A DNA stretch of 64,000 bases from Candidatus Babelota bacterium. Lineage in GTDB: Bacteria > Babelota > Babeliae > Babelales > Babelaceae. Below the pieces are notes generated by a model. That model did not search any database. It worked only from the letters and a program-made list of their open reading frames with translations, and was not told the origin of the DNA. Of this stretch, positions 9,292 to 62,384 are shown one piece after another. Position 1 is the stretch's first letter. Each line of letters opens with the position of its first letter. The stretch is taken from NCBI GenBank assembly GCA_003165355.1, contig PLTG01000021.1, forward strand, positions 334-64,333. The letters are read 5' to 3'. Both the position numbers and the translations under genes were made by a program.

Positions 9292-10041
9292 TTACAAAAG
9301 AACAATGGTCTCTTGAGGAATGCCTTCAGGCCGTTCATCGATATTATTGTTTTCTAAATTTATTAAGCGTAAAGCATATAGGTTGCTTAATGGGGTAAAG
9401 CTTTCCATGGCACCATCTAAACTATTACCACTCAAATCTAATTCAGTTAAATTGGTAAAAGTACTAAATTCGGGAGGGATAGAATAAATATCGCCATATC
9501 CCAGGGTTAATTTCTTTATCTCTTTTGATACTACACCCCAATCAAAATTATGCCCTAGGGTATTGCGAGTGGCATTCAATTCTTTCAAATGAATAAATCT
9601 TTTTAATATTTTTTCCCATTTTGCGGAAAAGCGACATCCCTCCAAGGACAATCGTTCCAATTTTTCAGATATTTTATCCCAGTTAGGATCATTAGCTTTC
9701 AATTTATTATGCGAAAGACTTAAATCAGTTAAATTAACTAAAGCACCCAATATTGCAGGTAGCTGCTTTAGGCCGTTCGCTCCGATATTGAGCTTCTTTA
9801 TGTTAGTGCATTTGCTGAGTAAATCCCAGTTGAGTTGCGTAAGATCAACATTATTGAAAAGATTCAATTCCCGCAGTTCAGGACCGGCATGTTTTTTTAA
9901 TTCGTCATTAATAAACTGAATATCCTGTCCTTGCGCTTCGCGGGGACTTTTGCTTAAATCAAGAATGTTCTCTCCCGCCTGTACAAGTATGATGCTAAAA
10001 GTTGTTACATTCAGAGCAGCTTTGTAAAGTATGTTTTTCAT
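9292..10041 (-). CDS. secreted leucine-rich repeat (LRR) protein
   Basis: Leader MKNILYKAALNVTTFSIILVQA. Repeated LxxLxLxxNxL units such as LRELNLFNN, IKKLNIGANGLKQLP, LTDLSLSHNKL and LTELDLSGNSL. Paralogous to the LRR part of 57382..58413. Confidence 0.85.
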   Translation of the reverse strand: MKNILYKAALNVTTFSIILVQAGENILDLSKSPREAQGQDIQFINDELKKHAGPELRELNLFNNVDLTQLNWDLLSKCTNIKKLNIGANGLKQLPAILGALVNLTDLSLSHNKLKANDPNWDKISEKLERLSLEGCRFSAKWEKILKRFIHLKELNATRNTLGHNFDWGVVSKEIKKLTLGYGDIYSIPPEFSTFTNLTELDLSGNSLDGAMESFTPLSNLYALRLINLENNNIDERPEGIPQETIVLL

Positions 10042-44976: not shown

Positions 44977-45603
44977 ATGAAAAAAGTATATCTTTTACCC
45001 TTTATATTCTTCGTTTTTAAAGTTTTTTCTATAAAAACCTCGAAAACTGTGATCTCAATGCCTCAAAAGACATTCTTGATGGGCGTTTCTAAAGACCCAC
45101 GGGTTAAGGCGTTCTTGGATCTTCTGGCCCATGGTGAAGGGACCTCTTACCACCCTGAGGTAAAAATGTTGCCTGATCAGTACCGCATAAGTTTCTGTAA
45201 CGATGGCAAGATCGCCTCATTTAAAGATCACCCTCGCAAAAAATGTTGCAATCGGGTTGGAGATCGCATTATTTGCGCTACTGCAGCCGGAAGGTATATG
45301 TTTTTGCAAAGAACCTGGGACTGGGTAAGGGAGAAGTTAGCGTTGAACGATTTTAGCCCTACCAACCAAGATTTAGCTGCTATTTATCTTCTGATGGAAT
45401 CCGGGGCGTTGGATGAGATTTTAAAAAATAACATAAAGGGAGCTATTGCCAAGGCAAGTAGGTTCTGGGCGCCTATGCCCGGGTCTTCATATAACCAGCC
45501 ACAAACCAAATTATCAGAGCTTTTAGGGATATATCAAAAAAGACTTACATTTTACCAGTCATTTGATGGCGTGTATAAAGATAAGAAGGGGGGAAATAGA
45601 TGA
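44977..45603 (+). CDS. lambda R-type lytic transglycosylase (GH104 lysozyme-like), membrane-anchored or secreted
   Basis: AFLDLLAHGEGTSY, DHPRKK, AAGRYMFLQRTWDW, LNDFSPTNQD and FWAPMPGSSYNQ align by eye with phage lambda endolysin R (AFLDMLAWSEGTDN, DHPRKL, GAGRYQLLSRWWDA, LKDFSPKSQD, IWASLPGAGYGQ). Hydrophobic N-terminus. Confidence 0.85.
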   Translation: MKKVYLLPFIFFVFKVFSIKTSKTVISMPQKTFLMGVSKDPRVKAFLDLLAHGEGTSYHPEVKMLPDQYRISFCNDGKIASFKDHPRKKCCNRVGDRIICATAAGRYMFLQRTWDWVREKLALNDFSPTNQDLAAIYLLMESGALDEILKNNIKGAIAKASRFWAPMPGSSYNQPQTKLSELLGIYQKRLTFYQSFDGVYKDKKGGNR

Positions 45604-46697
45604 TAAAAAAATTCACTGTTATGTTTTTAGCGATGTGCGCGATGATCTGCGTTCTATTTGCAGGGGTGTATCTCTATAAAAACATACGATCAATTTATAT
45701 GAGTGCCATCCCAGTCCAAGAGTGCAAGGATAAAGAGACATTCGATTTGAAAAAACAGTCTAAAGTTAAGAAATATCATAATAATGGCAAAATCGAGCAT
45801 ATTATCTTTTCTGTTCCCGAAGAACGCGGATCTCAAAAAAATATCCTGCGAAAAGGTATTTTAGTTACTCGTGCCCATGCGCGGGCCACCATCGTTATAT
45901 GCCATGGGTTTATGTGTAACAAAAATGATGTTAGCTTTCTGCGGAGCATATTTTACGATTATAATGTCATGGTCTTCGATTTCCGTGCGCATGGTGAAAA
46001 TAGTGAAAATCAATGCAGCTCTTTTGGCTTTAATGAAGTGCTCGATCTGGAAGGTGCCGTTGCCTTTATAAAAAGCAAGCCTGGGCTGGCAGCACTACCG
46101 TTAATAGGCTACGGCTTTTCAATGGGTGCCGTCACGGCTATTCTTGCGCAAGCACAGCATCCAGACATGTTCTCGGCCCTCGTTCTCGATTGCCCGTTCG
46201 ATTCCACTGAAATGGTAATTCATCGCCTTATAGAGCGGCTCACATTCACCGTGGGCGGCTATACCTACGGGCTTCCCGGGCGCAATCTTTTGAAAAAATA
46301 TGCGTATAACCACTCAGTTCAAGCGATGATCAAATATGCGCTCAGAGCAGTTGCCCATATCGGAACGCATGATATACAGTTATGCATTATTCCATCTGAT
46401 ACCGTTAATGAGATAAAAAAAGTTACCGTACCCTGCTTTTTTATCACCTGTAAAAATGATGATAAAGCGCCGGTTGATGCCGCGCGTGCTATCTATGCTA
46501 ACAAGCCTGGGTACAAACGGCTGTGGCTCACCAACGGGCGGTTACACTTTGATTCATTCTTTTACAATCCTGAAAAATATACTCATAAAGTGCGTTCATT
46601 TATCAAAAAATTTCTTGACGGTGAACTGAAAAATAAAACGGAATCAAAGATTGTTGAAGATATTGACGATCCATTCGTTCATAAGGAGGTTTCATGA
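45600..46697 (+). CDS. alpha/beta-fold hydrolase with N-terminal TM anchor
   Basis: Nucleophile elbow GYGFSMGA, an HG oxyanion-type motif (ICHGFM), and a late D...H pattern. The start overlaps the upstream stop (ATGA). Confidence 0.75.
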   Translation: MIKKFTVMFLAMCAMICVLFAGVYLYKNIRSIYMSAIPVQECKDKETFDLKKQSKVKKYHNNGKIEHIIFSVPEERGSQKNILRKGILVTRAHARATIVICHGFMCNKNDVSFLRSIFYDYNVMVFDFRAHGENSENQCSSFGFNEVLDLEGAVAFIKSKPGLAALPLIGYGFSMGAVTAILAQAQHPDMFSALVLDCPFDSTEMVIHRLIERLTFTVGGYTYGLPGRNLLKKYAYNHSVQAMIKYALRAVAHIGTHDIQLCIIPSDTVNEIKKVTVPCFFITCKNDDKAPVDAARAIYANKPGYKRLWLTNGRLHFDSFFYNPEKYTHKVRSFIKKFLDGELKNKTESKIVEDIDDPFVHKEVS

Positions 46698-47359
46698 AAT
46701 ATCTTGTACATATACTACTCATCGTTTTAGTAAGCGTGTTAGTTATCACGTATGGCGCTTTGCATGCAGAGACTATAAAGACAGAAGGCCGCTTTCTTGA
46801 TACCGCATCAGATTACCCTATAACCGTCGCCTACGTGTATGACGGCTGCCACCACCAGTCATCTGAATATTGCAGTAGTCGCAAGCCATCATATCATCAG
46901 AATAAAAGAACATTATGGAATGTAAGTAGAGACAGTGAGCTATGTGCAGCGAATGTGCATTTTATGGCTATCGATACCTCACGTAATCGCATAAAGAATG
47001 TTAAGCAGTTTTTATCAATAACGGGGTCAGATTCTTTTATAGTTTTTCTTAATGGCTATATAGCAAATTATGACTATCTATCCGGCACACCAACCGAACA
47101 GCAATTGATAGCCTATATTAAACGCGCAGCGGGAAATGCTCTTACTACAGACGAACGTCTTGAACGGCAGCCTGGTCAGTGCGCACAGAAATGCCATCGC
47201 TATGCTCCGTGTGATACAACCCAGTCATGGCGTGGTAACCCCTCTTGGCAGGTTCAAGGATATTACGGGGTGATGGGTGGCGAGCCGCCGCATAGTTATG
47301 GATACGCACAGGCGGGAGCATATAGCTATGGGATGGGCTTTAGGCGATTACCAAATTAA
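46694..47359 (+). CDS. membrane-anchored hypothetical protein with Tyr/Gly-rich tail
   Basis: N-terminal TM segment LVHILLIVLVSVLVITYGAL. The start overlaps the upstream stop (ATGA). C-terminal GYYGVMGGEPPHSYGYAQAGAYSYGMGF. Confidence 0.6.
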   Translation: MKYLVHILLIVLVSVLVITYGALHAETIKTEGRFLDTASDYPITVAYVYDGCHHQSSEYCSSRKPSYHQNKRTLWNVSRDSELCAANVHFMAIDTSRNRIKNVKQFLSITGSDSFIVFLNGYIANYDYLSGTPTEQQLIAYIKRAAGNALTTDERLERQPGQCAQKCHRYAPCDTTQSWRGNPSWQVQGYYGVMGGEPPHSYGYAQAGAYSYGMGFRRLPN

Positions 47360-47546: not shown

Positions 47547-49424
47547 ATGAAAAAAATTATTTTACTTATCTTGCTTATATCTGGGCAAATATCTGCTTTG
47601 CAAGTCGGGCTTAACCAAAAACGAAATTTAGCCACGCCAAGGGAGCGATTGCAAGCAAAGCGTGCCAATCTGGATTTAAAAAAAACGAGCGAATTTCCCT
47701 ATGCTCCAAGGGGGTTACTTATATTTTTAAATGATCTTGAAAAAGAGTGTACTGCAGAGGCGGTGGGGCAGGCATTCACTTACGCTCTTCTTCAACAGCC
47801 GGGGCCTATCATAGTGTCAGCAAATTTGGTACGCAGTGTGTTTGCAAGCGATCGAAAAATGGATTTGGTCGGTGCCATTTCTCGATTCGAGGGAGAAAAA
47901 GTTTCTTTTGATGATACTAATCCCTGTACAGTACTTGTTTCTTCTGACTTTGACATACAAAAATGGATTATAAAAGAAATAAGCAGTGATCTTTATCTGC
48001 TTTTACCGCATAGTTATCTTGAAAGATTAAACATAAGCTCTGCGCAAGTGAATTATTGGGAAAAACCTGAAGTTAATCAAATCGAATTGATCTTGGGATT
48101 TAAAGTGAATCATATGCGCACGATTCAAGTGGACGATATGATCGAAAAACCTCTCACACGCAAACATGAAAACGCTGCCTATTTTGTAGATGCTTTATAT
48201 AAAGGGGATCTTTTTTGTACCCGTGCGGATTATCAAAAAAGTTTGATAGCGCAACCTCTTTGGACATGGTTTATGGTGGGGCACGGATATACGGGAGAAA
48301 CGATTGTTGATATACCTATAAATGATTTTAAAAAGCTTCTTGATTTTGCATCAACTCGAATAACTATGCGCTTGCTTGCCTATTTGACCTGTTATGGCGC
48401 GGGTATAAATACGGAACTTTTATATAATGATGAAAAAACTGGCATACAGAAAACATATCCTTTTGCGATCGTAACGCAGGCGATAACTGATTCTCAAACT
48501 TGGGGGTATATACATAAAGAAGCGTCTTCATCGCGTGAAGTAATGGAGGAATATACAGAACGGCCCTATGATTTTGATACTTTTATAAAATTGTCAGAAA
48601 AAAGAGATATCGATTATGAAGAAATCCTAGGATGTTTATTTAATATAATTCCGAAGAAAAATTTTCCAGGTAATATCGCACAAATTAAATTACCGGGAAT
48701 AGAATGGTTTTCGACGGTCGCAGGCAAGCAAGATGTGGTAAGTATAGGTTCTGTCATGTCTCGCACAAGAACAGCGCCATTGAATATTCAGAGATTTTTT
48801 ACTAAAAAGTCAGCAAAAGCAAATCCTGCAAGAGTAGATCCTAAAGCGCTGCTTTTAGAAACAACATATATACCATTTGAAATCATCATTAATGGCTCTA
48901 GCTTGGAATATATTATATCCATGGTCCCTATGCCTGGTATGGCGAGTATTTATATCGCTGCTTTAAAATCTTCAGTACATGATATTAATAAAATATTGGA
49001 TTTAATCCAACGTATTAATGGTTACGATACTAAGTGGCTCAACAAAAGATTTTATATATCGCGTATTACCGCTTTAAATGATAAGGATCAATTGACCGAA
49101 TATAGAGATGTCGTAGTATTTCCTAATGGTTACACCTATTTTAAGCAGGGATCGAACATTTACTATAAACGTATGGTAGATGAAAAAGCGATAGACGAAA
49201 ATTCTGAGGAGGGGCGTGAAGTAGTGAGTTGTTTACGTGATCATTATAGTGAAGAAACTTTTGATGCAATAAAAAGCGAAGCATATAACTATTCAAAAAA
49301 GTTGGATGTAGGAACTACGGAACAAACTGAAGGACTTTCACCAGAAAATATCAGTAAGCTTGAGGAATTATTTAAAAAACGTAGTGCTGCGGCTGCCGTT
49401 GGGAAGTTGGCTGCTTCTGAATGA
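47547..49424 (+). CDS. secreted protein, array paralog 1 (candidate caspase-like His/Cys protein)
   Basis: Leader MKKIILLILLISGQISA. WFMVGHG (His codon 48282) and LLAYLTCYGAG (Cys codon 48390). Shares most conserved family blocks with copies 2-4. Confidence 0.85.
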   Translation: MKKIILLILLISGQISALQVGLNQKRNLATPRERLQAKRANLDLKKTSEFPYAPRGLLIFLNDLEKECTAEAVGQAFTYALLQQPGPIIVSANLVRSVFASDRKMDLVGAISRFEGEKVSFDDTNPCTVLVSSDFDIQKWIIKEISSDLYLLLPHSYLERLNISSAQVNYWEKPEVNQIELILGFKVNHMRTIQVDDMIEKPLTRKHENAAYFVDALYKGDLFCTRADYQKSLIAQPLWTWFMVGHGYTGETIVDIPINDFKKLLDFASTRITMRLLAYLTCYGAGINTELLYNDEKTGIQKTYPFAIVTQAITDSQTWGYIHKEASSSREVMEEYTERPYDFDTFIKLSEKRDIDYEEILGCLFNIIPKKNFPGNIAQIKLPGIEWFSTVAGKQDVVSIGSVMSRTRTAPLNIQRFFTKKSAKANPARVDPKALLLETTYIPFEIIINGSSLEYIISMVPMPGMASIYIAALKSSVHDINKILDLIQRINGYDTKWLNKRFYISRITALNDKDQLTEYRDVVVFPNGYTYFKQGSNIYYKRMVDEKAIDENSEEGREVVSCLRDHYSEETFDAIKSEAYNYSKKLDVGTTEQTEGLSPENISKLEELFKKRSAAAAVGKLAASE

Positions 49425-49454
49425 AGATTGAAATTTTTTGAAGGGGGAAATCGT

Positions 49455-51239
49455 ATGAAAAAAATTATTTTACTTATCTTGCTTCTATCTGGGCAGGTAT
49501 GTGCCCTTCAGCCGGGGCTTGCGTCTGCGCGAAAATTTGCTACACCAATGGAACAATTGCAGGCAAAATCTCGAAGTACTGCTCAGCCAATTCAAACTGA
49601 AGAGATTGATGTTCCGGAATATGCGCCGCGGGCCGTGCTTATTTTTCTGCATGAGCCCAATAATTTTTGTATTCTTGAATCGACTAGCTTAAATTTAACT
49701 GAAGCACTTATTCAAAAAGCTGGTCCAATCATAGTATCAACAAGTCTTTTGCGAAGTGTCTTGAGTTATCATTTGCCCCCATCGATGAATGAAATAGACA
49801 AAAACTATAACCCTTGTAGAAGGCTTTTGACACAATTTGACAGTAATGAATGGGTTATTAAAGAGGCGACAGAAGATCTTTATCTCCTCATTCCCCATAC
49901 GTATCTTAAAATGGTTAATATTGAAGTTGCTGAGCTTCATCAAGAAAATGCAAATTCTTTAACAGCGGTTGAGTTGAAGCTGGGGCTTAAGGTTAATCAT
50001 ATGCGCTCGTTGCCGATCGAAAAGATAAATACCGCAAGTCTTTTGCCGCTCGAGAATAATTATTTTGTGCGTGCATTACAAGAGGGAAAATTATTTTGTG
50101 AGCGGAATAATTATCAAAATAGCGAAGTTCCACAACCATTATGGACATGGTACTTGTCGGGTCATGGAATATTTAAAAATATTATCGCAGGAATTCTATT
50201 GGAGGACTTTAAGAAGGTACTTGCATTCGTTTCAACTAAAATTAACATGCGGTTGCTTATGTATCAGACATGCTATGGCGCTGGAGCAAATACCGAACTT
50301 ATTTACCATGATGAAGAAACAACCTTGCAAAAGACATACCCCTTTATTATTGCCACGCAGGCGATTTCTGATGCACCTACTACACATACTTTTTTTATCC
50401 CAGCTTTGGGTGATAAAATTGCGCGCCCTGATAATTTTCGTGCTTTTGTAGCATTGGTGCTTGAGCAGGACCTTGATTATGAGAGGGCAATCGCCAGTTT
50501 GTTTCATATAAACCCAGACCTCTATTACGCGGGTAATATTGCTCAAATTAAATTGCCGGGAACTGAGTGGTTTTCAGTTATGGCAGGTAAAAATGATGTG
50601 GTGACTATAGGAAAAATCATGGCACGGACGAGAAAAGAGCCATTAGATATACAAAAATTTTTTAGGACAAAAGATCCGAAAGCGATACTTTTAGAATCGA
50701 CTTATATTCCTTTTGAATTGATTATTAACGCGCCGCATATGGAATACATTATTTCTGTTGCTCCGGGTAACATGTCGACATATTTGCGGGGAATCCGTTC
50801 TGAGAAACATGATATAAACCAGATACTTAAATGGTTTCAGGGTATCAGCCTGACTGACGATGAGCTTTTTTATAAAACAATATACATAGAGCATATTGTT
50901 GTACAGGATAAAAAGGGTCAATCAACAGAATATACGGATATTGTAATTATGCCATCTGGAGGCGTCTATTTCAAACATGGTTCAGATATCTTTTTCAAGG
51001 AGCTGGATAAATTTGCCGTAAATAGTGCGCAGGTGCCTAACGATATGTGGGCTAGGGTATATGGGCCATCTTTCATTAAAGATATAAAGGAACGGAGTCT
51101 GAAATATGCACAAAGATCTAATGCGCGTGCCACTGAAAAGACTGAAGGATTATCACCAGAAAACATGAGCAAGCTTGAAGATGCAATCAAACAAAAAGCT
51201 GTAGCGGTTGGTAAATTAAAAAATGAGGGGACGATATGA
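49455..51239 (+). CDS. secreted protein, array paralog 2
   Basis: ATG at 49455 lies behind aagggggaa. WYLSGHG (His 50163) and LLMYQTCYGAG (Cys 50271). The track ORF starts at 49428. Confidence 0.85.
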   Translation: MKKIILLILLLSGQVCALQPGLASARKFATPMEQLQAKSRSTAQPIQTEEIDVPEYAPRAVLIFLHEPNNFCILESTSLNLTEALIQKAGPIIVSTSLLRSVLSYHLPPSMNEIDKNYNPCRRLLTQFDSNEWVIKEATEDLYLLIPHTYLKMVNIEVAELHQENANSLTAVELKLGLKVNHMRSLPIEKINTASLLPLENNYFVRALQEGKLFCERNNYQNSEVPQPLWTWYLSGHGIFKNIIAGILLEDFKKVLAFVSTKINMRLLMYQTCYGAGANTELIYHDEETTLQKTYPFIIATQAISDAPTTHTFFIPALGDKIARPDNFRAFVALVLEQDLDYERAIASLFHINPDLYYAGNIAQIKLPGTEWFSVMAGKNDVVTIGKIMARTRKEPLDIQKFFRTKDPKAILLESTYIPFELIINAPHMEYIISVAPGNMSTYLRGIRSEKHDINQILKWFQGISLTDDELFYKTIYIEHIVVQDKKGQSTEYTDIVIMPSGGVYFKHGSDIFFKELDKFAVNSAQVPNDMWARVYGPSFIKDIKERSLKYAQRSNARATEKTEGLSPENMSKLEDAIKQKAVAVGKLKNEGTI

Positions 51240-52954
51240 AGAAGATTTTGTTACTTGCTTTGCTCATAAGCGGACACCTTTATGCTCTGCAGCCGGGGCT
51301 TGCGTCTGCGCGAAAATTAGCGACGCCAGTGGAGCAATTGCAGACGAAACACCAAAATACTGCTACGGGTACCTTGTATCCTCCGGAGGTGGAGTCGGAC
51401 TTTTCTGCTGTTGAATATGCTCCACGTGGATTACTTATTTTTTTGAATCATCAGCTGAGCAAATCTTGCATTACTGAGGCAATTAGCTTGAATTTAACCG
51501 AGGCGCTCGTTCAAAAGGCCGGACCCATCATCGCATCAAAAAATCTGGTGCACAGTGTCTTAGCCAAGTATCTGCCACCCGCTCAAAAAGGGAATTATTC
51601 TTGGTCCGAAATTGATTTAAATAACGAAAATAATCCGTGTACGAGACTTATTTTGAAATTTAACAGTGATGAATGGGTAATCAAAGAAATAACGCAAGAT
51701 CTTTATCTTCTTATTCCGCAAGCATACCTTTTGTGGGTAACTATCGACCCTGCTGAACTGAGCCTTGATAATGCGGCGTCATTAACGACAACGGAGCTCA
51801 AGCTCGGCCTTAAGGTCAACCATATGCGCACTGTATCGATCGAACAGGTGAATAAGGGGCGCTTCGAGGCCTTAGGCGACGGGTTTATAAAGGCACTGCG
51901 GGAGAATATGCTCTTTTGCGAGCGTAGGAACTATCAAGGGAGCGAAGTGCCTCAACCCCTTTGGACGCTCTATTTTTCCGGGCATGGTGAATTTGAAGAA
52001 ACTATGGCTGGAATGAGTCTTGATGATTTTAAGAAGATGCTTATCTTCGCTTCAGATAAAATCAATGTAAGATTACTTATGTATCAATCCTGCTATGGCG
52101 CGGGGCTTAATGCTGAGCTTATTTATTACGACCAGGCGGCAGCCACCAATAAGACGTATCCCTTTGCCATCGCTACCCAAGCCATTACTGATGCACCTAC
52201 CATTCAAAGTCACGTTGTGTTTGGTAAAAAAGTGCCGCGGCCGGATGACTACCAAGGCTTTATGGCATTGGTGCATGAGCAAGATCTGGATTATAAAAAA
52301 GCGATCGCGTTAGTGTTTCATACGGAGCCAGACATAAGCTATAGGGGCAATATTGCACAAATTAAATTGCCGGGTACAGGATGGTTTTCTGTGGTCGCTG
52401 ATAAAAATCATATTGTGACTATTGGCAACGTCTTGGCTCGTACAAGAAAAAATCCTTTAAATGTTCAAAAATATTTTAAGGCAACGGCATTGAAAGCGCT
52501 TCTTCTTGCCGCGCCCTACATTTTATTTGATCTGATTATCGATGTGCAGTTGGATTTTATCATCTCACTTGTCCCAGGAAGTGGTGCCACGTATCTGCAA
52601 GGGATTCGTTCCGATAAATATCCTATAGATACGATATTGGGTTGGTTTCAGCGCATTCCACTTACTGATAGCAGCCTGTCGCTGGACAAGATGTTTTATA
52701 TAGAGCATATTGTTGCCCCGAATCAAGAGAGGAAATTAACTGAATATACCGATGTTTTCATTGCATCTTCGGGGGGCGCCTATTTTAAGCATGATTCAAA
52801 TATTTTTTTCAAAAATGATCAGCATGTAAGCGCGAAACGTATGACTGAGCCATTTACAGGAGGGGTATTTGGTCCGGCCTATTGGGATGGCTCTCTGGTT
52901 AAAGGCCTAAAGAAGCGAAAGAACAAATATGCAGAGCAAAAATTGCTCAATTAA
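51236..52954 (+). CDS. secreted protein, array paralog 3 (lacks the C-terminal tail)
   Basis: ATGA overlap with copy 2. LYFSGHG (His 51983) and LLMYQSCYGAG (Cys 52091). Ends before the EKTEGLSPEN tail. Confidence 0.85.
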   Translation: MKKILLLALLISGHLYALQPGLASARKLATPVEQLQTKHQNTATGTLYPPEVESDFSAVEYAPRGLLIFLNHQLSKSCITEAISLNLTEALVQKAGPIIASKNLVHSVLAKYLPPAQKGNYSWSEIDLNNENNPCTRLILKFNSDEWVIKEITQDLYLLIPQAYLLWVTIDPAELSLDNAASLTTTELKLGLKVNHMRTVSIEQVNKGRFEALGDGFIKALRENMLFCERRNYQGSEVPQPLWTLYFSGHGEFEETMAGMSLDDFKKMLIFASDKINVRLLMYQSCYGAGLNAELIYYDQAAATNKTYPFAIATQAITDAPTIQSHVVFGKKVPRPDDYQGFMALVHEQDLDYKKAIALVFHTEPDISYRGNIAQIKLPGTGWFSVVADKNHIVTIGNVLARTRKNPLNVQKYFKATALKALLLAAPYILFDLIIDVQLDFIISLVPGSGATYLQGIRSDKYPIDTILGWFQRIPLTDSSLSLDKMFYIEHIVAPNQERKLTEYTDVFIASSGGAYFKHDSNIFFKNDQHVSAKRMTEPFTGGVFGPAYWDGSLVKGLKKRKNKYAEQKLLN

Positions 52955-52970
52955 AAAAACGGGGGAAGTC

Positions 52971-54830
52971 ATGAAGAAGATTTTATTAATTATTGTGCTC
53001 GTATCTGGGCAGATGCGTGCTGCACAGGTCGGGCTTTCGCAGCAGCGTATAACAACGCCTATGGAGCAGTTGCAAGAGCAATACCGCAATGCACCGGTTA
53101 AAGCGAGTGCATATACATTAGAGCAAGAGGCTGGCCAGCCAGATATTGAGTATGCGCCACGCGGATTACTTATATTTTTGGATGAGCCTCGGGAGTATTG
53201 CCTCAAAAAAGAAGCAGTCAGCCTTGATTTGACAGAAGCAATTATTCAAAAAGCAGGGCCAATAATAGTATCGGCTAATATATTGCGAAGTGTTTTGAAA
53301 GATTACTTACCACCGTCAGAAAGAACAATGTATGGGAAAACAGTTTCTTACGTTAAATCTTTCTTTTCAAAAGAGAGTAAATCAGAAAAAGCTTTCAACT
53401 CTTGTGAGATACTTATATCCAAAAACTTTGATAGTAGTGAGTGGATTATAAAAGAGGTATCAAAAGAGCTTTATTGCATGTTGCCCTATACATATCTTGA
53501 CATGGTTAAAGTTGCTCTTGCTGATGTGCAAAAAGAAAATGCGTCCTCTATAACCCCGACTGAATTAACATTAGGACTTAAAGTAAATCATATGCGTAAT
53601 GTAGATATACGAGAAATAAGCACTGCTCAGATTATACCATCAGATAGGTCTTATTTTGTTCGAGCATTGACAGGTGGCAATTTATTCTGCGAGCGTGCAG
53701 CTTATCAAGAAAGTTATATATCGCGGCCTTTATGGACGTGGTACATGATGGGTCATGGATTTGTTAGTCAATACATAGTCGGGATGCCCATTGAAGACTT
53801 TAAAAAAGTGCTTACATTTATCACTGATCATTTAACTATGCGATTACTCGTGTATCAAACATGTTATGGTGCTGGGTTAAATACCGAGCTTGTATATAAT
53901 GATGAAAAAACCAATATGCAAAGAGCATATCCATTTACTATTGTTACACAAGCGATCACTGATGCTAGTGTCGCTCAATTAGTTCTCAGTTATGGTGTCA
54001 AAAGAGAGCGACCACGAGACTTTAGCACTTTTACCAAATATGGTCATGATAACGATATTGATTATGAAAAAGTAATAAAGACAGTGTTTCATATAGCTCC
54101 TGATCCATTTTATAAAGGTAATATCGCACAAATCAAATTGCCTGGAATAGAATGGTTTTCCGTTGTTGCCGGAAAAAATGATGTGGTCGGTATAGGAACT
54201 ATTATGGCTAAAACACGCAGTAAGCCATTAGATATTCATAAATGGTTTAAAGCGGAAAATCCCAGAGCATTGCTTTTAGAAACCACTTATATACCCTTTG
54301 AGATCATTATTAATGTGCCTCATTTAGAATACATAATATCAGTAGTGGCTGGGGAGACTAATACTTATATAGAAGCGATAACTTCTTCAGTGTATGACAT
54401 CAATCAAATTCTTAATACATTCCAGCGTATAGAACTATCTGCGGGTATTGAATTGATGAAAAAAATATACATTTCCCGTATTACTGCATTAAATGATCAG
54501 GGACAACCGACAGAATATAAAGATATCATTATCGCGCCGAATAATAATGTTTATTATACGCAAGGTGCTGATATTTTTTTCAAAAGGCCTGATCAAAAAG
54601 CGGTAAGTACTGCGCAAGAAAGCGATTTATTCCTTAAAATTTATAATAAGCAAGTATTTGATTTCATAAAGAGTCAAGCCCAACGATATGCGAAGAAATC
54701 GAGCAGACGAGCAACTGAAAAAACTGAAGGACTTTCGCCAGAAAGTATCAGTAAACTTGAGAATGTATTAAAAACGCGCGATATATCAAAAGCTACAGCA
54801 GTTGGTGCACTAGCAAAGGCAGGGAAATAA
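52971..54830 (+). CDS. secreted protein, array paralog 4
   Basis: ATG at 52971 lies behind gggggaag. WYMMGHG (His 53754) and LLVYQTCYGAG (Cys 53862). The track ORF starts at 52929. Confidence 0.85.
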   Translation: MKKILLIIVLVSGQMRAAQVGLSQQRITTPMEQLQEQYRNAPVKASAYTLEQEAGQPDIEYAPRGLLIFLDEPREYCLKKEAVSLDLTEAIIQKAGPIIVSANILRSVLKDYLPPSERTMYGKTVSYVKSFFSKESKSEKAFNSCEILISKNFDSSEWIIKEVSKELYCMLPYTYLDMVKVALADVQKENASSITPTELTLGLKVNHMRNVDIREISTAQIIPSDRSYFVRALTGGNLFCERAAYQESYISRPLWTWYMMGHGFVSQYIVGMPIEDFKKVLTFITDHLTMRLLVYQTCYGAGLNTELVYNDEKTNMQRAYPFTIVTQAITDASVAQLVLSYGVKRERPRDFSTFTKYGHDNDIDYEKVIKTVFHIAPDPFYKGNIAQIKLPGIEWFSVVAGKNDVVGIGTIMAKTRSKPLDIHKWFKAENPRALLLETTYIPFEIIINVPHLEYIISVVAGETNTYIEAITSSVYDINQILNTFQRIELSAGIELMKKIYISRITALNDQGQPTEYKDIIIAPNNNVYYTQGADIFFKRPDQKAVSTAQESDLFLKIYNKQVFDFIKSQAQRYAKKSSRRATEKTEGLSPESISKLENVLKTRDISKATAVGALAKAGK

Positions 54831-54860
54831 ATTATAAATTGTGGGAAAGGTGGGACATAT

Positions 54861-56690
54861 ATGAAAAAAATAATCTTGATAATTTTATTAGCAGTTACGC
54901 AAATGCATGCTGCACAAGTTGGTCTTTCGAAACAGCGTATAGTAAGTCCGATGCAGCAATTACAAGAGAAATATCTAATTGAAAAAAATCAAAAGGCTCT
55001 ATTCATTATTCTTAATGAAAACTTGGAAGCGTATCCAAAAGAGAGCATGCAGTCACGTCTTGAATGTTTCTTAAGAACGCAGAATTTCCCTATTATTACT
55101 AAAAAAAATCTTTTAATACGCGTAGTTGATAGTAACCCGGATATTTTTAAAAAAAATAAATGGTTCATTAAAAAATGTGATAACTATGTTCTCCTGGTTC
55201 CATTTGAACAGATTGAGGCCGACGAGTCAATCGATTTAATACCTGGCTTGCCTTCTCATGAACTTACTGATTTAGAAAAAAAATTGGGGCTAAAAATCAA
55301 TCACCTCGAAACGCTTGATCATCAAATTTTTGTATCAAATGAAACAAACAGTTCTAAAATTGTCTCCCGTGTTGTTGATACTATAACAGGCTCTATTAAA
55401 GGCGATATTCTTTTTTCTAAGATAAGAGGACATCATCCCAGATTCAACGATGTTTTATCCAAAATATTTGTCGTCCATACTGATATATACCCAAAAGGAT
55501 CGCATAAAGAAATTCATAAAGAGGAAGCCGAATGGGTGATCATGGCAGCGGGCCATGGTGGAGGAATAGGCATAGACCGGACCTCATTTTGGTCGGTTAT
55601 AGCTGATTTTTCATTGACAGAATTTAAGAAAATGATGGATTTTTTTAAGAGATCGCTCTCTATAAAAGTTGTTTTTATCCAGTCTTGTAGTATCGGCAAA
55701 AATATCGCACAAGATGTATTTACTTCTGAAAATTTAGATAATACGATACAGCAAGCGTATCCTTTTGATATTATTTTTTCGGCTATGGGAGATGAATACA
55801 CATATTTTGAGAAGCATGCATGTGAAAAGGGCGCATATAGTGAATTTATTAAAAAAATAAATGCTACGTCAAACCCAGATTATTATACAATTTTAAATAA
55901 AACTATCGTACAATCACATAGTGAAAATCCAGTGCCCCAAATTCGTTATAAAAATACCGAATACTTTTTACCTGTTTATGCGCTTTCTTCAAAGATTCAG
56001 GACGCCCTCATTATCAGTAATGTTATGGCTGCTACGCGTAAAGAACCGTTAATAATAAAACGCACTATTAAAAATGTAGTACTCTATTCTCCAGTGATCT
56101 CCTTTCCTATTAAATTAGCGAAAGAATTTTTTGGAAACTGGTACTATAAGTTTAAACCATCAGTGGACTTTGTATCTTCTTTTTTTGAAAATAAAGTTAT
56201 TCGCTTTTTTTCTTTGGAAATTGAATATCCGACACAACTTTCCTATAAATGGAAGCAACTGGATTCTGGAAAATTGGGTATATTCTGCGATTTATTGGTT
56301 ATTAATGATTGGGCATCAGTTCCATACCCGGGCGTCGCTGAGCAACAGTTAAGAGAGATTTTTCCCGGTGCAAAAAATGTAGCTGTTGATCCAACTCGCG
56401 CAAATTATTTATTGGGAAAAGTAACATTGTATAATGTAGCTTTCACTAAAGAAGCTGTTACTGGGATGGTAAGGTCACCAGATAATCGTGAATATATTGT
56501 GATATATAAAGATGGCAGTATTATGCAATTAAGCCCTGCGGACAGCACAAAGAAAAAACAGGATTATATTGTTGCCTTTGAAAAAAGATTTGGGAAAATT
56601 CCACAGATGCCAGAAAGCATGAGTAAACTTGATGAATTATTTGAAAAACGTGTAGCGGCGGCGGCTGTTGGGAAGCTGGCAAGCTCTTAA
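54861..56690 (+). CDS. secreted protein, array paralog 5 (divergent)
   Basis: Same leader and AAQVGLSKQRIVSPMQQLQ start. VIMAAGHG (His 55554) and VVFIQSCSIG (Cys 55686). Same AAAAVGKLASS C-terminus as copy 1. The rest is much more divergent. Confidence 0.8.
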   Translation: MKKIILIILLAVTQMHAAQVGLSKQRIVSPMQQLQEKYLIEKNQKALFIILNENLEAYPKESMQSRLECFLRTQNFPIITKKNLLIRVVDSNPDIFKKNKWFIKKCDNYVLLVPFEQIEADESIDLIPGLPSHELTDLEKKLGLKINHLETLDHQIFVSNETNSSKIVSRVVDTITGSIKGDILFSKIRGHHPRFNDVLSKIFVVHTDIYPKGSHKEIHKEEAEWVIMAAGHGGGIGIDRTSFWSVIADFSLTEFKKMMDFFKRSLSIKVVFIQSCSIGKNIAQDVFTSENLDNTIQQAYPFDIIFSAMGDEYTYFEKHACEKGAYSEFIKKINATSNPDYYTILNKTIVQSHSENPVPQIRYKNTEYFLPVYALSSKIQDALIISNVMAATRKEPLIIKRTIKNVVLYSPVISFPIKLAKEFFGNWYYKFKPSVDFVSSFFENKVIRFFSLEIEYPTQLSYKWKQLDSGKLGIFCDLLVINDWASVPYPGVAEQQLREIFPGAKNVAVDPTRANYLLGKVTLYNVAFTKEAVTGMVRSPDNREYIVIYKDGSIMQLSPADSTKKKQDYIVAFEKRFGKIPQMPESMSKLDELFEKRVAAAAVGKLASS

Positions 56691-56797
56691 CAGGAGTCTA
56701 ATTTTTAGAGATTTTCAGGGCCGATTTTAAAGTAGTTAACTGAGAGATTACGAAATTTTTTGCTACCTGTACATATTTGATGCCGAAAGTATTAGGT

Positions 56798-57370
56798 TTA
56801 AGCGCTGTGGATCTGTTTTGCAAAAAGATACAGATTATCATCGTCATCTTCATTTTCATAAGTAGCCATCTTTCCACCGATATAGGTAAAGCCAAGCTTA
56901 TTATAAAATCCTCTTGCAGAGGGCAAGCTTTCAAGAGACATCGAATTATACCCTAAAAGATGGGCAATAGCTGTATTATCAAAAACTTCGATACAAGCAC
57001 GTCCGATGCCCTTATTTCGATAGTCTGCATGGACATCTATGCTATTTATAAAAAAGGCTGTATCTTTTTTGGTACGTAAAAAACTTGCTTTAAAATCAAG
57101 ATAATTATTTTCAGTTTTTAACTTGATGATAAATCCCTTTTTTTTGGGATTTTTAATTATAGTCCCCTGTAATGAGGCACCTGCTTGAGCGAGGGTAATT
57201 TTTTTTGATAATGGAAGTAATTGCAGTGCGAGGGCTGGCTCTAGTGCTTGCCATCTATCAGCAAAACGGATTTGTGCCTCTGAATCGCACGTGATGTTTA
57301 TCGGAAATTCTTGAGCATGCAGCGATATGCTTGCGAGTAATAAGAGCTTAATGATTTGCAGTTTTGCCAT
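56798..57370 (-). CDS. secreted GNAT-family N-acetyltransferase
   Basis: Leader MAKLQIIKLLLLASISLHA. Acetyl-CoA motif A VHADYRNKGIGRACIE, followed by ARGFYNKLGF. Confidence 0.8.
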   Translation of the reverse strand: MAKLQIIKLLLLASISLHAQEFPINITCDSEAQIRFADRWQALEPALALQLLPLSKKITLAQAGASLQGTIIKNPKKKGFIIKLKTENNYLDFKASFLRTKKDTAFFINSIDVHADYRNKGIGRACIEVFDNTAIAHLLGYNSMSLESLPSARGFYNKLGFTYIGGKMATYENEDDDDNLYLFAKQIHSA

Positions 57371-57381
57371 ACTAAAATACC

Positions 57382-58413
57382 TTATTCTTCATCTTGCCAA
57401 GTTAGTAAAACTTTTACTTTGTCTGGTATTTCTGCTGGACGAGTAGTCATCTTTCTACCGCGCAGATCAACTAATTCTAAATCTGGCAATTGACTGAGAA
57501 TCGTCCAATCTGCTTTCATTTTGATAGCGCTATTTTGAACAAGATGCAACTTTCTCAGTTTTTTAAAATTGCGTAGCTCTTCTGGGAGTTTTCTCATATT
57601 GCAATCATTCAATCCTAAATCTTGAACCGATGTTGGAATATATTCCCAATGAACATCAGGAGATGAGAAATCATTATGAACGATCCAAAGATTTTTTAAA
57701 TTATTTAAAGAACGTAACCATTCTGGCAATTGTGTTAAGTCGCATCCCGGTAAAGATAGATCTTCTAATTTTTGAGAAATAGACTCTAGATGATACTGGT
57801 TGTGCAATGAGTTTCCTCTAAGATTTAACCGCTTCAAATGAGTTAAAGAGCTTATTTGCTGGGGTATCTGTGTGAGGCCGTATGCAGTTATTGATAATTT
57901 TTGCAGATTTGTGCATTTCTCTAGTAGGCTGAGATCTAATGGGTTTTGCTCATTGTCTTTTGAATAAAAATAATGAGAAGGCTCACAAATATCGATTTCA
58001 AGTAAATCCCCACTGGCACATTCTTTAAGTGCCTTGTTGAAATTTCGATATCTCCCCCATTGAGTCACAAAATGTCGACTATCAAGTTTTGTGAATGCGA
58101 TCTGCGTCAATATTTTTGTTGCCGTACTTACTTGCTTAAGCTTTAGTATGTCGCCATATAAATAATTTGCCATATGGGTAAAAATTTCCGGTGGTAGCTT
58201 CTCTAATAAACGGGGGTCCCCTTGAGATTCTTGATGCGATTGAGTTGTTGATACGAGTTGCGTATCTTCAGAGGCCACAGGCTGGGCTAATGGTTGTTGA
58301 ATAAGGCGGCTTAAGGTAAGCCCACAATGAATATTTGATAAAAAGCTTATACAGAAAATTATGAATATGTGATATAACTTCGTAAAAAGTTTAATGATTT
58401 GCAGTTTTGCCAT
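57382..58413 (-). CDS. F-box / leucine-rich-repeat protein (eukaryote-like)
   Basis: ATG at 58413 gives MAKLQIIKLF plus a hydrophobic leader. The F-box-like LEKLPPEIFTHMANYLYGDILKLKQVS spans about nt 58084-58212. This is followed by LxxLxL repeats (LQKLSITAYGLTQIP, LKRLNLRGNSL, LEDLSLPGCDLTQLP and others). Confidence 0.8.
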   Translation of the reverse strand: MAKLQIIKLFTKLYHIFIIFCISFLSNIHCGLTLSRLIQQPLAQPVASEDTQLVSTTQSHQESQGDPRLLEKLPPEIFTHMANYLYGDILKLKQVSTATKILTQIAFTKLDSRHFVTQWGRYRNFNKALKECASGDLLEIDICEPSHYFYSKDNEQNPLDLSLLEKCTNLQKLSITAYGLTQIPQQISSLTHLKRLNLRGNSLHNQYHLESISQKLEDLSLPGCDLTQLPEWLRSLNNLKNLWIVHNDFSSPDVHWEYIPTSVQDLGLNDCNMRKLPEELRNFKKLRKLHLVQNSAIKMKADWTILSQLPDLELVDLRGRKMTTRPAEIPDKVKVLLTWQDEE

Positions 58414-58414
58414 G

Positions 58415-59248
58415 TTAGAATCCCTGTAAGAAAGTGTTGCCATTTTTGATATTTTTTATGAAATGTATGCCAAAATGGTTAGGTATAAGTGATGCTGCAA
58501 GTTGGCCACCGAAAAAGAACCCTTGTTCGGGAGTTATTGCCATCATTTTCGCTAATGGAGATGTCTTTGCCTCTTTCTCTAAGCGCTCGAGCTGTCGCGC
58601 AAGACGTTCATCAGTCGTAAGATTTTCAGGTGTTGATGTAGCAGGTTTTTGCACTTCAGGATGCTTAAAATAGCGCTCTAAAAGCCAGGGGCCCATAAAT
58701 GATACTGCGGTAGAGCCGACAGCAAGCACACGGACAAGGAGCGTTCCACGCGCGCCGGCAAGAGCACCTGCTTTATTCAGTTTATAGGTACCGTAACGTG
58801 CCTTAAAGGCTTTTTTACTTGCTTCGTCTCTGGCCTTAGGGTCCTGATACGATTCTTCTATAGTAGCATGATCAAGGGTCGTTTGAACTGCCTTTTTTGC
58901 ATGAGCTTCAGCAGCGCCCTTTACGGTATCTGAGACGTTGAGCAAGCCTGAGTTTACTGCAGTTATGAGAGTTAAGGCAAGGGGGAATGCAGCAAATGCT
59001 GCCCCAGATGCTGTTAAAACTGCTGTTTGGCCTTGGGTCATCTGGGGGAGTTCCCACAAATGGGTACGTAGACCAATGCCTTGATTGAGTGCAGCTTGGG
59101 CTATAAAACCTGTAGTAAAATGTGCAGCATAACGAGTAAGTGAGCTTTTATCAAGCTGAAAAGCTGCAGAGTCTTCTTTTTGAGCCATGAGAGGGCTTAA
59201 TGCAAAAGAAAGCAAAAATATCTTTTTATTCAAAAAGTTCATTATCAT
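58415..59248 (-). CDS. secreted or membrane hypothetical protein
   Basis: ATG at 59248 (or 59242) gives the leader MIMNFLNKKIFLLSFALSPLMA and avoids overlap with pepA. Two long hydrophobic segments. The stop lies 1 nt from the F-box gene start. Confidence 0.6.
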   Translation of the reverse strand: MIMNFLNKKIFLLSFALSPLMAQKEDSAAFQLDKSSLTRYAAHFTTGFIAQAALNQGIGLRTHLWELPQMTQGQTAVLTASGAAFAAFPLALTLITAVNSGLLNVSDTVKGAAEAHAKKAVQTTLDHATIEESYQDPKARDEASKKAFKARYGTYKLNKAGALAGARGTLLVRVLAVGSTAVSFMGPWLLERYFKHPEVQKPATSTPENLTTDERLARQLERLEKEAKTSPLAKMMAITPEQGFFFGGQLAASLIPNHFGIHFIKNIKNGNTFLQGF

Positions 59249-59407: not shown

Positions 59408-60922
59408 ATGATTACTTTTAAACTTGCTGATCAGCATATACTGAATCAAGAGGCTGATTTATATGTGGGGTTTTGCCCTCAAAATGCCATCCCAGAAAAC
59501 ATTATAAGAGATTTTACCTCGCTCTATGCCCCGCTTAATGATCTTATTAAAAAAAGAAATTTTGCAGGTGCTGCAGGAAGCCAATTGGTTATCTCCGCCG
59601 CGCGTAATAACAAAGCGGTAACGCTTATGCTTGTCGGTCTCGGGTCTGAAAAAAAGTCTCAGGCAGACAGGTTAGAAAATGCGCGTCGAGCAATGGGTTT
59701 AGTGGTAAGAACAGTAGAGCATACCAAATCAACGCATGCCGCCGTTCTTTTACCCGATCACCACTGGTTTGCAATCAATGAATTTGAATTGACTAAAGAG
59801 CTTGTTGCAACGGCGATGATGGCAGGTTACCATTTTGACCAATTTATTACCGATGCAGCTGCAAAACTAACACAAAATTGTGAAATTACTCTCTGCGCTC
59901 CGGCGATTTTACATAATCAAATTTCAGTTGGTGTAGAATTTGGTCAACGTATTGGCCATGCGGTCAACCAAGCGCGCCAATGGTGCGATTTGCCCGCCGA
60001 TATTTTAACGCCAACTATTTTAGCTGAGCATGCTGCACGCATTGCAAAAGTGCATGATTTGAAGGCTACTATTTTTGATGAAGCGACCGTCAAAAAAATG
60101 GGCATGGGTGGCCTTGCAGGAGTTTCAGCAGGTTCTGCACAAGAGTGTAGATTTGTAGCTATTGAATATAAGAGTGGTCACCAAGATGCCCCTACTCTTG
60201 TATTAACGGGTAAGGGTGTCACCTTCGATTCAGGCGGCATTAGTATTAAGCCCGCAAATCGTATGGACGAGATGAAAGATGATATGGCTGGCGCAGCTGC
60301 GGTGATCTCTACGATGGAGGCCATTGCGCATCTTAAACCGCGCGTGAATGTTATCGGTATTACGCCAATTGCTGAAAACATGCCGAGCGGCACTGCGATC
60401 AAGCCGGGCGATATTATTACTTTTTATAACGGCATGACTGCGGAAGTTAAAAACACTGACGCAGAAGGGCGCTTAATTTTAGCTGACGCGTTATCCTATG
60501 CCGTTAAACATTATAAGCCTGATGCGATTATTAATGTGGCAACTTTGACTGGTTCATGTGCCGCTGCGCTCGGGCCATTCTTTGCGGGTATGATGAGTAA
60601 CCATGACGATCTGGTTGAAAAATTAACCAAAGCATCAAAACGCTCCGGCGACAGGCTCTGGAGATTGCCGTTTCATGATGATTACAAAAAGGCGGTTCGC
60701 TCAAGTGTGGCAGACATCTGTAACATTGGTAATGAAACATATAAAGCTGGGGCTATTACGGCTGGGTTCTTCTTGCAAAATTTTGTCGGTGATACGCCAT
60801 GGGTACATTTGGATATTGCGGGCACCTCGTTTAATGTTCCTGATATGAGCTACTATCGCCCGGGAGCTACTGGTTTTGGCGTTCGATTATTTATAGACTT
60901 TTTGATGCATTTTGAAGAATAA
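59408..60922 (+). CDS. pepA: leucyl aminopeptidase (M17)
   Basis: VGKGVTFDSGGISIKP-like LTGKGVTFDSGGISIKP, and NTDAEGRLILADAL. Confidence 0.96.
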   Translation: MITFKLADQHILNQEADLYVGFCPQNAIPENIIRDFTSLYAPLNDLIKKRNFAGAAGSQLVISAARNNKAVTLMLVGLGSEKKSQADRLENARRAMGLVVRTVEHTKSTHAAVLLPDHHWFAINEFELTKELVATAMMAGYHFDQFITDAAAKLTQNCEITLCAPAILHNQISVGVEFGQRIGHAVNQARQWCDLPADILTPTILAEHAARIAKVHDLKATIFDEATVKKMGMGGLAGVSAGSAQECRFVAIEYKSGHQDAPTLVLTGKGVTFDSGGISIKPANRMDEMKDDMAGAAAVISTMEAIAHLKPRVNVIGITPIAENMPSGTAIKPGDIITFYNGMTAEVKNTDAEGRLILADALSYAVKHYKPDAIINVATLTGSCAAALGPFFAGMMSNHDDLVEKLTKASKRSGDRLWRLPFHDDYKKAVRSSVADICNIGNETYKAGAITAGFFLQNFVGDTPWVHLDIAGTSFNVPDMSYYRPGATGFGVRLFIDFLMHFEE

Positions 60923-61358: not shown

Positions 61359-62384
61359 ATGAAAAAGATAGTTATAGGATTGTTACTATACGTACAGCAT
61401 GGATACGGTATTGAGCCGATCGGCTTAACAAACCTGGGTAATACCTGCTACATCAATTCGACTTTGCAATGTTTAGGTGCTATTCCAGAGTTAAGAAACT
61501 ATATCTTTAAATTTAGCTCGCACGATCCATTAACAGAAGAATTTAAAAGAATGCTCAAAAGCCCTATTGCTGGCCCGAAAGCGTTTGTAGAATGCGTCTC
61601 TGAAACCGGGATAATGGGTAAATTAGCAATTAATGCGCAACAGGACGCCGCCGAATTTTATGAAAAATTGATAAATAAATTACAACCGCAAGAAACAATA
61701 CACAATTTATTTCGCATCAATACAAAAATGGACACAATTTCTGCAAGCCGTGAATTTAAGCGTGAGCCCGTAATACAAGAAAGCACTATATTAAGAATCG
61801 GGTCACAATTTGTAACCAAGCAAAAGGGGATGTCGATTGAGGCTCTTATTAAAAATTATTTTTTGATTCCCCAAGAAGATACCATTCAAGTAGAAAGAGA
61901 TGGCGTCAATAAAGAATTTGATATTAAAGAAAAAAATAGTGGCCTGCATCTTTCCCCAATTCTGGTTGTTGCTGTGCCGCGTTTTGATATGGAGGGCAAT
62001 AAAATAAAAACGCCTCTATGGTCCAACATGAAGCCTCTTATTCTTACCGATGCTAAAAAAAATAAACATACCTATAACCTTTTAGGGTGCGTTTTACATG
62101 CAGGCGAAACGGTAGATAGTGGCCACTATACTGCAGTAGCACGATATGATAATGAATGGTTTTATTGTGATGATACGCAAGTGAGCCTTCAAGCGGAAAG
62201 CCAAGTGGGAGCGCGTTTAAGTAATCAAGATAATTTCGATTCTTACCTCTACTTTTTTAGAAAAGATTTCCCCCTCACATTGCAGCAAGTAGCCGACGAA
62301 GAAAAGAAATCACACTATCGGGGAGATCGGATCGTTCAAAAACAATTACCATTTCAACGTGGTCTGGCTGATGTTATTGAATGA
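61359..62384 (+). CDS. USP/UBP-type ubiquitin-specific cysteine protease (C19-like) with signal peptide
   Basis: Cys box GLTNLGNTCYINSTLQCL (Cys codon 61446), a QQDAAEF motif, and His box GHYTAVARYDNEWFYCDDTQV. Leader MKKIVIGLLLYVQHGYG. Confidence 0.85.
   Translation: MKKIVIGLLLYVQHGYGIEPIGLTNLGNTCYINSTLQCLGAIPELRNYIFKFSSHDPLTEEFKRMLKSPIAGPKAFVECVSETGIMGKLAINAQQDAAEFYEKLINKLQPQETIHNLFRINTKMDTISASREFKREPVIQESTILRIGSQFVTKQKGMSIEALIKNYFLIPQEDTIQVERDGVNKEFDIKEKNSGLHLSPILVVAVPRFDMEGNKIKTPLWSNMKPLILTDAKKNKHTYNLLGCVLHAGETVDSGHYTAVARYDNEWFYCDDTQVSLQAESQVGARLSNQDNFDSYLYFFRKDFPLTLQQVADEEKKSHYRGDRIVQKQLPFQRGLADVIE

Follow-up and report, generated by a model that had tools for sequence, protein, structure and literature searches.

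The question raised by this locus is whether a minus-strand gene of a Candidatus Babelota bacterium encodes an F-box/LRR protein of the kind that eukaryotic SCF ubiquitin ligases use as substrate receptors, and how such a protein might reach and act upon a host. Bacterial F-box effectors are textbook examples of molecular mimicry (Legionella AnkB, Ralstonia GALA, Agrobacterium VirF) and, as a member of the protist-infecting phylum Dependentiae (TM6), the organism lives as an intracellular parasite, so that hijacking of a host SCF complex is the natural reading. The gene lies in a stretch of 64,000 nucleotides, referred to throughout as the window, and the source genome that was searched with it amounts to 1.30 Mb in 86 contigs and is ~92% complete.

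The full open frame in the ORF list runs from 57382 to 58443 on the minus strand and encodes 353 aa. Inspection of the DNA places an AGGGA 8 nt 5' of the ATG at 58413 and finds no comparable signal at the ATG at 58443, which would add 10 residues. The stop codon of the upstream ORF (TAA, 58415-58417) is 1 nt from the former ATG. Owing to the spacing of the AGGGA and the adjacent upstream stop, the ATG at 58413 is the likely start, in agreement with the coordinates of the initial annotation. The product has four parts: a putative Sec-type hydrophobic leader, a linker predicted to be disordered, an F-box-like segment of 43 residues and about eight LRRs (Table 1).

Table 1. The F-box/LRR gene, the parts of its product, its neighbours and its paralogs (columns: feature; position in the window or on the contig named; strand; description and basis).
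F-box/LRR gene	57382..58413	minus	343 aa plus stop; ORF list and RBS-like AGGGA
N-terminal hydrophobic leader	58324..58413	minus	Residues 1-30 (MAKLQIIKLFTKLYHIFIIFCISFLSNIHC)
Q/S/T-rich linker, predicted disordered	58210..58323	minus	Residues 31-68; pLDDT <50 in both AlphaFold2 models
Putative divergent F-box	58081..58209	minus	Residues 69-111 (LLEKLPPEIFTHMANYLYGDILKLKQVSTATKILTQIAFTKLD); family profiles, hhalign, AlphaFold2
Family-specific linker helix (predicted)	58006..58080	minus	Reads NFNKALKECASGDLLEI, against a family consensus of INxALxxYAGPQLxEL; paralog alignments and AlphaFold2
LRR solenoid	57385..58005	minus	Residues 137-343; Pfam, phmmer against the PDB, Foldseek, repeat dissection
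Upstream operon gene	58415..59248	minus	277-aa Ala/Gly-rich protein; leader, several hydrophobic helices
Downstream operon gene	56798..57370	minus	190-aa GNAT acetyltransferase with leader; Pfam Acetyltransf_7, _10, _1
pepA (housekeeping)	59408-60922		Between the operon and the USP gene
USP (C19) deubiquitinase	61359..62384	plus	Leader; PF00443 E=1e-31
F-box-less paralog	9292-10041	minus	249 aa; leader, INDELKKHAGPELRELNL linker, LRRs ending RPEGIP..IVLL
Paralog on contig C64	111131-111871		F-box/LRR
Paralog on contig C42	6860-8005		F-box/LRR
Paralog on contig C1	31553-32644		F-box/LRR
Paralog on contig C60	2198-3166		F-box/LRR
Paralog on contig C24	4565-5509		F-box/LRR

An F-box had been proposed for this protein from the consensus, and a scan with the Pfam F-box models, which the initial annotation suggested as a check, gives a borderline result. 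Searches with the single sequence (Pfam, NCBIfam and phmmer against the PDB) return LRR matches only, plus one F-box_4 match below threshold (E=0.0023; 18.3 bits against a cut-off of 32; residues 79-134 of the 353-aa frame). PF00646 and PF12937 give no match to the protein at E<=1, and genome-wide scans with these two models match other genes instead.

The case for an F-box is carried by profiles of the family to which the protein belongs. When a profile was built from the N-terminal domains of six paralogs and run against the PDB (177,635 sequences), its best match was FBXL5, at the F-box of that protein (E=1e-4), and FBXW8 and FBXW7 were matched as well. A second profile was made without the C1 paralog, which passes the Pfam cut-off by itself (22.4 bits on PF00646), and combines four paralogs, five metagenomic relatives and the protein under study. 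All of its top seven PDB matches are F-box chains, i.e. FBXL5 (8e-5), FBXW7 (1.5e-3), FBXO31 (0.015), FBXW8 (0.038) and further FBXW7 constructs (0.037-0.039), with Legionella AnkB (5k35_A, E=0.25), FBXO4 and Cdc4 at lower ranks. Since F-box chains come first even when C1 is left out, the precedence of FBXL5 is independent of any one paralog, and the PDB alignments of both profiles are in register on LPxE...YL...D(I/L)...S. Run on a library of 1.84 billion representative proteins, the profile from six paralogs retrieves just 34 at E<=1e-3, eight of which (E<=1e-10) are the family itself; every one of the ten distant matches that were scanned carries a Pfam F-box and/or F-box-like domain above the gathering score, one of them a nematode F-box protein. 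The same profile matches the bona fide F-box-like protein encoded on contig C8 of the source genome, and the C42 paralog scores 20.7 bits on PF12937. Comparison of the family segment with nine Pfam-verified F-boxes by hhalign gives a probability of 97.8%, a test that is partly circular, a related profile having supplied seven of the nine templates; independent evidence comes from the PDB searches.

A proline, a glutamate and a leucine are invariant in the family segment, the first two as part of the LPxE motif. Tryptophan is usual in helix 3 of F-boxes, and the position at which FBXL5 has it is taken by K, R or T in the family. At the level of family profiles, the segment is best described as a true but divergent F-box, homologous to those of eukaryotes. 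The F-box first proposed thus stands on the two profiles and on hhalign, but its single sequence stays below the Pfam thresholds.

Structure prediction is consistent with this description. Over the F-box segment AlphaFold2 predicts helices at residues 75-84, 86-94 and 97-106 followed by a beta-strand, with pLDDT 77-85, and in the model from a shallower alignment the pLDDT of the F-box is 54-70. The predicted fold is one of three helices in ~40 residues that opens with an LPxE loop. The second model, covering residues 56-343 (343-aa numbering) and derived from an 11-sequence family alignment, reaches pLDDT 84 and pTM 0.83 and has short strands at regular spacing. Foldseek searches with both whole-protein models retrieve mostly LRR proteins, LIC10831 being the top match, and the single structure aligned over its full length that is not purely LRR is Skp2 (1fs2_A), at ranks 23 and 17. 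In BFVD, F-box/LRR proteins of giant viruses rank among the top matches.

The C-terminal part of the protein consists of LRRs. Dissection of the repeats and the Pfam matches (LRR_4 E=4e-10, LRR_8 E=1.5e-6 and LRR_14) bear out the approximately eight LRR units initially counted. They follow the pattern LxxLxLxxNxLxxLPxxL, mostly in 23-24 residues: an irregular unit comes first, successive units measure 23, 23, 23, 24, 23, 26 and 21 residues, and a terminal strand with the conserved sequence RPAEIPxKVKVL comes last. In the PDB, phmmer matches LRRD1, the Leptospira proteins LIC12759, LIC11098 and LIC10831, and SHOC2 (E=1e-23 to 1e-13), the domain also resembles internalin A, and LRR_6 gives no match to the protein in the Pfam scan. 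This sequence evidence assigns the LRRs to the 'typical' class, like those of SHOC2 and the Leptospira LIC proteins, and not to the cysteine-containing (CC) class found in FBXL proteins, where the repeats are ~26 residues long. The FBXL architecture claimed at first is therefore right in one respect only: an F-box does precede the LRRs, but the repeats are 'typical' ones with their best matches in LRRD1, LIC and SHOC2, so that the likeness is confined to domain order.

The protein is one of a family, whose members were recovered when it was used as the query against the ORFs of its own genome; a word-indexed homologue search finds relatives at the LRR level only. The family comprises six copies in the source genome, three in one congener and a few metagenomic singletons. 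All five other F-box/LRR paralogs share a common layout of leader, LPxEVF..YL...DI......S...R.L segment, INxALxxYAGPQLxEL linker, LRRs and RPAEI..I.V strand, and the F-box segment is kept in the six paralogs and in relatives of 25-38% overall identity. The number of repeats varies from 4 to 12 among the paralogs, which suggests that the family may have diversified for different targets. Because the paralog at 9292-10041 of the window has the linker and LRRs and no F-box, the F-box is a detachable unit which the LRRs do not require as a cap.

Across 201 Dependentiae genomes the family profile matches the source genome and one of its three congeners, with weak matches only elsewhere, and, as far as these sequence searches reach, the family is confined to the source genus and a few metagenomic singletons. 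Pfam labels two of the relatives, both from contigs of ordinary bacterial character, as LRR only; routine annotation therefore misses their F-box. F-box-like domains in general were found in 48 of the 201 Dependentiae genomes, spread over 39 of 120 genera, and in none of 14 control genomes. A genome of the same taxonomic family and another genus (G172, ~1.4 Mb) has 32 PF12937 matches, many of which fall in a cluster at 947-972 kb, and represents a large F-box expansion. The source genome (G000) also holds a second F-box family, two adjacent leader-bearing F-box-like proteins on contig C8 (23563-24384 and 25236-25838; PF12937 33.8 bits, PF00646 20.7 bits), the C-terminal parts of which are unrelated to LRRs.

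The bacterial hydrophobic leader seen from the outset is borne out, as residues 1-30 are strongly hydrophobic on the Kyte-Doolittle scale with a peak of 2.1 at residues 16-30, and would represent a Sec-type signal peptide, or perhaps a signal anchor that is not cleaved. Its paralogs all have classical leaders of the type MKK...(I/L)HA↓A. The hydrophobic stretch of the present leader is unusually long, with an internal Lys and IHC at its end, and could act as an uncleaved membrane anchor that retains the protein at the bacterial envelope. A lipoprotein reading was discarded, the sequence ...SNIHC↓G not matching the lipobox L-[AS]-[GA]-C. Leader cleavage and the route of export are, for this protein, presumed from sequence features.

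As to the machinery available, a genome-wide scan finds two secretins and no match to the FHIPEP export gate of type III systems; nor is there a match in the genome to a Pfam model of the VirB4-type ATPase, a model that may miss DotO. The two secretin genes are on contig C77 (20152-20640 and 24729-25208), with 4.5 kb between them. All TM6 genomes were reported to carry two gspD copies as part of a type II system (Yeoh et al., PMC4776705), and the source genome, with its two secretins and no FHIPEP or VirB4-type match, agrees with this published core and has a gene content in keeping with the phylum. In Babela, signal peptides are found on eukaryote-like effectors, including ankyrin-repeat proteins and secreted C19 hydrolases (PMC4378268), and 44% of the CDS of Chromulinavorax have signal peptides (PMC6561590). 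Leaders on eukaryote-like proteins are the rule in the Dependentiae.

The gene had further been placed in a tight three-gene minus-strand operon, an arrangement confirmed by intergenic gaps of 1 nt and 11 nt, the GNAT gene starting 11 nt past the stop codon of the F-box gene. The most likely start of the first gene is at 59248 (MIMNFLNKK...), downstream of a promoter-like, near-consensus site (TTGACA-16-TATATT) at 59310-59283 on the minus strand. Its product has no Pfam or NCBIfam match and no paralog in the source genome. The first 23 nt of the F-box and GNAT genes are identical (ATGGCAAAACTGCAAATCATTAA, encoding MAKLQIIK; 58391-58413 and 57348-57370, minus strand), and this motif is absent elsewhere in the genome with up to 3 mismatches allowed; a shared and unique start of this kind suggests that the 5' end was duplicated or recombined locally. 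The three genes were considered as a conserved module and rejected as such: the upstream gene is without a paralog, and the F-box/LRR paralogs elsewhere stand singly among housekeeping genes. The GNAT has one marginal match only (E=0.002), an ORF on contig C11, which has no F-box/LRR paralog.

The nearby USP-type deubiquitinase is also genuine (PF00443) and lies 2.9 kb from the F-box gene, but the proposal that the two form a linked ubiquitin-manipulation toolkit does not survive comparison with the congeners. In two of these, G162 and G059, the counterparts of the three genes at 44977-47359 of the window directly adjoin pepA, and in a third, G175, other genes occupy this site. Positions ~47547-59248 of the window therefore represent a species-specific insertion of ~12 kb, absent at this site in G162 and G059, which contains five legumain-like paralogs and the three-gene operon and has the appearance of a variable island of effector genes at one fixed place in the chromosome. 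The USP gene is beyond pepA and outside the island, and G162 keeps a USP there (33% identity) without the F-box operon. Given this synteny, the USP and F-box genes are neighbours in a variable region and not a module inherited together, and a single inherited toolkit is rejected: the deubiquitinase is conserved independently past pepA and the F-box operon belongs to the insertion.

Among known bacterial proteins, the closest architecture is that of the GALA/RipG proteins of Ralstonia solanacearum, which likewise place an F-box at the N-terminus, ahead of an LRR solenoid, occur as multi-copy paralogs and are proposed to be SCF receptor mimics. They are unlike the present family in having CC-LRRs, type III injection and no Sec leader, as against 'typical' LRRs, a Sec-type leader and no FHIPEP match, and a sequence relationship between the two is seen at the domain level only. 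GALA LRRs are 24-residue repeats of the CC-LRR subfamily (PMC2244805). The F-box/LRR proteins of giant viruses (Klosneuvirus, Barrevirus), which are also parasites of protists, resemble the family in predicted overall fold and domain order, and the Barrevirus F-box protein, ranked second in BFVD, aligns over 280/280 residues, albeit with an rmsd of 13.7 Å. However, these proteins are viral and cytoplasmic, have no leader, and match mainly through their LRRs and at this high rmsd.

Legionella pneumophila AnkB, LegU1 and LicA, which are Dot/Icm-translocated, offer a parallel as F-box effectors of an amoeba-infecting bacterium, and the AnkB F-box is itself among the profile matches. AnkB differs in that ankyrin repeats bind its target and delivery is by a type IVB system, whereas the present protein has LRRs and its genome no match to the VirB4-type Pfam model, which may miss DotO. 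The eukaryotic FBXL proteins (Skp2, FBXL5, FBXL3) share the order of F-box and LRR, and that of FBXL5 is the F-box best matched in the PDB; they are set apart by their CC-type repeats, since the family has typical LRRs, no helix-3 Trp, a bacterial leader and the INxALxxYAGPQLxEL linker. Finally, the F-box proteins already known from Dependentiae have in common with this family the phylum and lifestyle, and in both cases there is an association with exported C19 ubiquitin hydrolases and with eukaryote-like proteins that bear signal peptides. An F-box protein of Babela massiliensis was reported in 2015 (PMC4378268) and F-box and LRR domains are listed for TM6 genomes (PMC4776705), but in both papers the two are listed separately and no F-box/LRR fusion family is described.

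The reading preferred here, and considered somewhat probable, is that of an exported effector that recruits a host SCF ligase. The Sec-type leader would carry the protein through the inner membrane, and the type II apparatus, with its two GspD secretins, or outer-membrane vesicles would release it toward the host cytoplasm. There the divergent F-box would bind host Skp1 and fill the substrate-receptor slot of an SCF (Skp1-Cul1-Rbx1) ligase, while the concave face of the ~eight-repeat solenoid would hold a host protein, which would then be ubiquitinated. Skp1 binding and ubiquitination of a target are proposed from the domain content.

The main rival to SCF recruitment is an exported or envelope-bound LRR binder, i.e. 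an adhesin or other surface or periplasmic protein, in which a non-functional F-box persists as a decayed relic serving as an N-terminal helical cap or spacer. This reading is judged unlikely, though not negligibly so. It agrees with the closeness of the LRRs to the bacterial surface or secreted proteins LIC10831, LIC12759, LIC11098 and internalin A, with the sub-threshold Pfam score and lost helix-3 Trp of the F-box, and with the existence of an F-box-less paralog. A relic, however, would not be expected to be among the better-conserved parts of the family, as the F-box is in the six paralogs and their distant relatives, and while surface proteins do carry Sec leaders, so do the USP deubiquitinases and ankyrin-repeat proteins of this phylum, such that the leader is no argument for the surface.

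It is also conceivable, but improbable, that the protein is an inhibitor or decoy that sequesters host Skp1 from the endogenous F-box proteins, or shields the bacterium from ubiquitin tagging. The architecture is equally compatible with this, and exported USP deubiquitinases in the genome would fit a general blunting of host ubiquitination. Nevertheless, a conserved LRR solenoid that diversifies between 4 and 12 repeats is hard to explain by the F-box alone, and the known bacterial F-box effectors AnkB and GALA/RipG are substrate adaptors, as described for RipG6 (PMC13243912). That the F-box likeness arose by chance in an unrelated helical module is very improbable indeed, for although the single sequence falls under the Pfam cut-off and PF00646 and PF12937 are silent, two family profiles independently rank F-boxes first in the PDB and all ten distant matches tested have Pfam F-box matches above the gathering score.

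Recruitment of a host SCF ligase by an exported protein would add to what is already known for the Dependentiae, namely F-box proteins, LRR proteins, exported USPs and signal-peptide effectors (PMC4378268, PMC4776705, PMC6561590). Three features are mildly new: an F-box/LRR fusion carries a Sec-type leader, its LRRs belong to the typical class, and its F-box diverges too far to be picked up by routine annotation. It is possible, although this is put forward only tentatively, that the family constitutes a set of Dependentiae-specific SCF-hijacking receptors, exported by Sec and type II instead of being injected, that combine a Trp-less F-box, the INxALxxYAGPQLxEL linker and typical LRRs and are invisible to F-box annotation. 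As the F-box of the family escapes single-sequence Pfam searches, counts of ubiquitin mimics in the phylum are probably too low, and if Skp1 is bound, the F-box repertoire of the Dependentiae has been undercounted.

To our knowledge, all characterised bacterial F-box effectors are injected by dedicated translocation machines. The Dependentiae appear limited to Sec and type II secretion, yet they encode many eukaryote-like proteins, the F-box/LRR family included. Binding of Skp1 would mean that functional E3 adaptors can be placed in the host cytosol even by a pathogen lacking type III, IV and VI systems, and, if shown together with delivery into the host, would provide a test of how, if at all, proteins exported by type II secretion act within a eukaryote.
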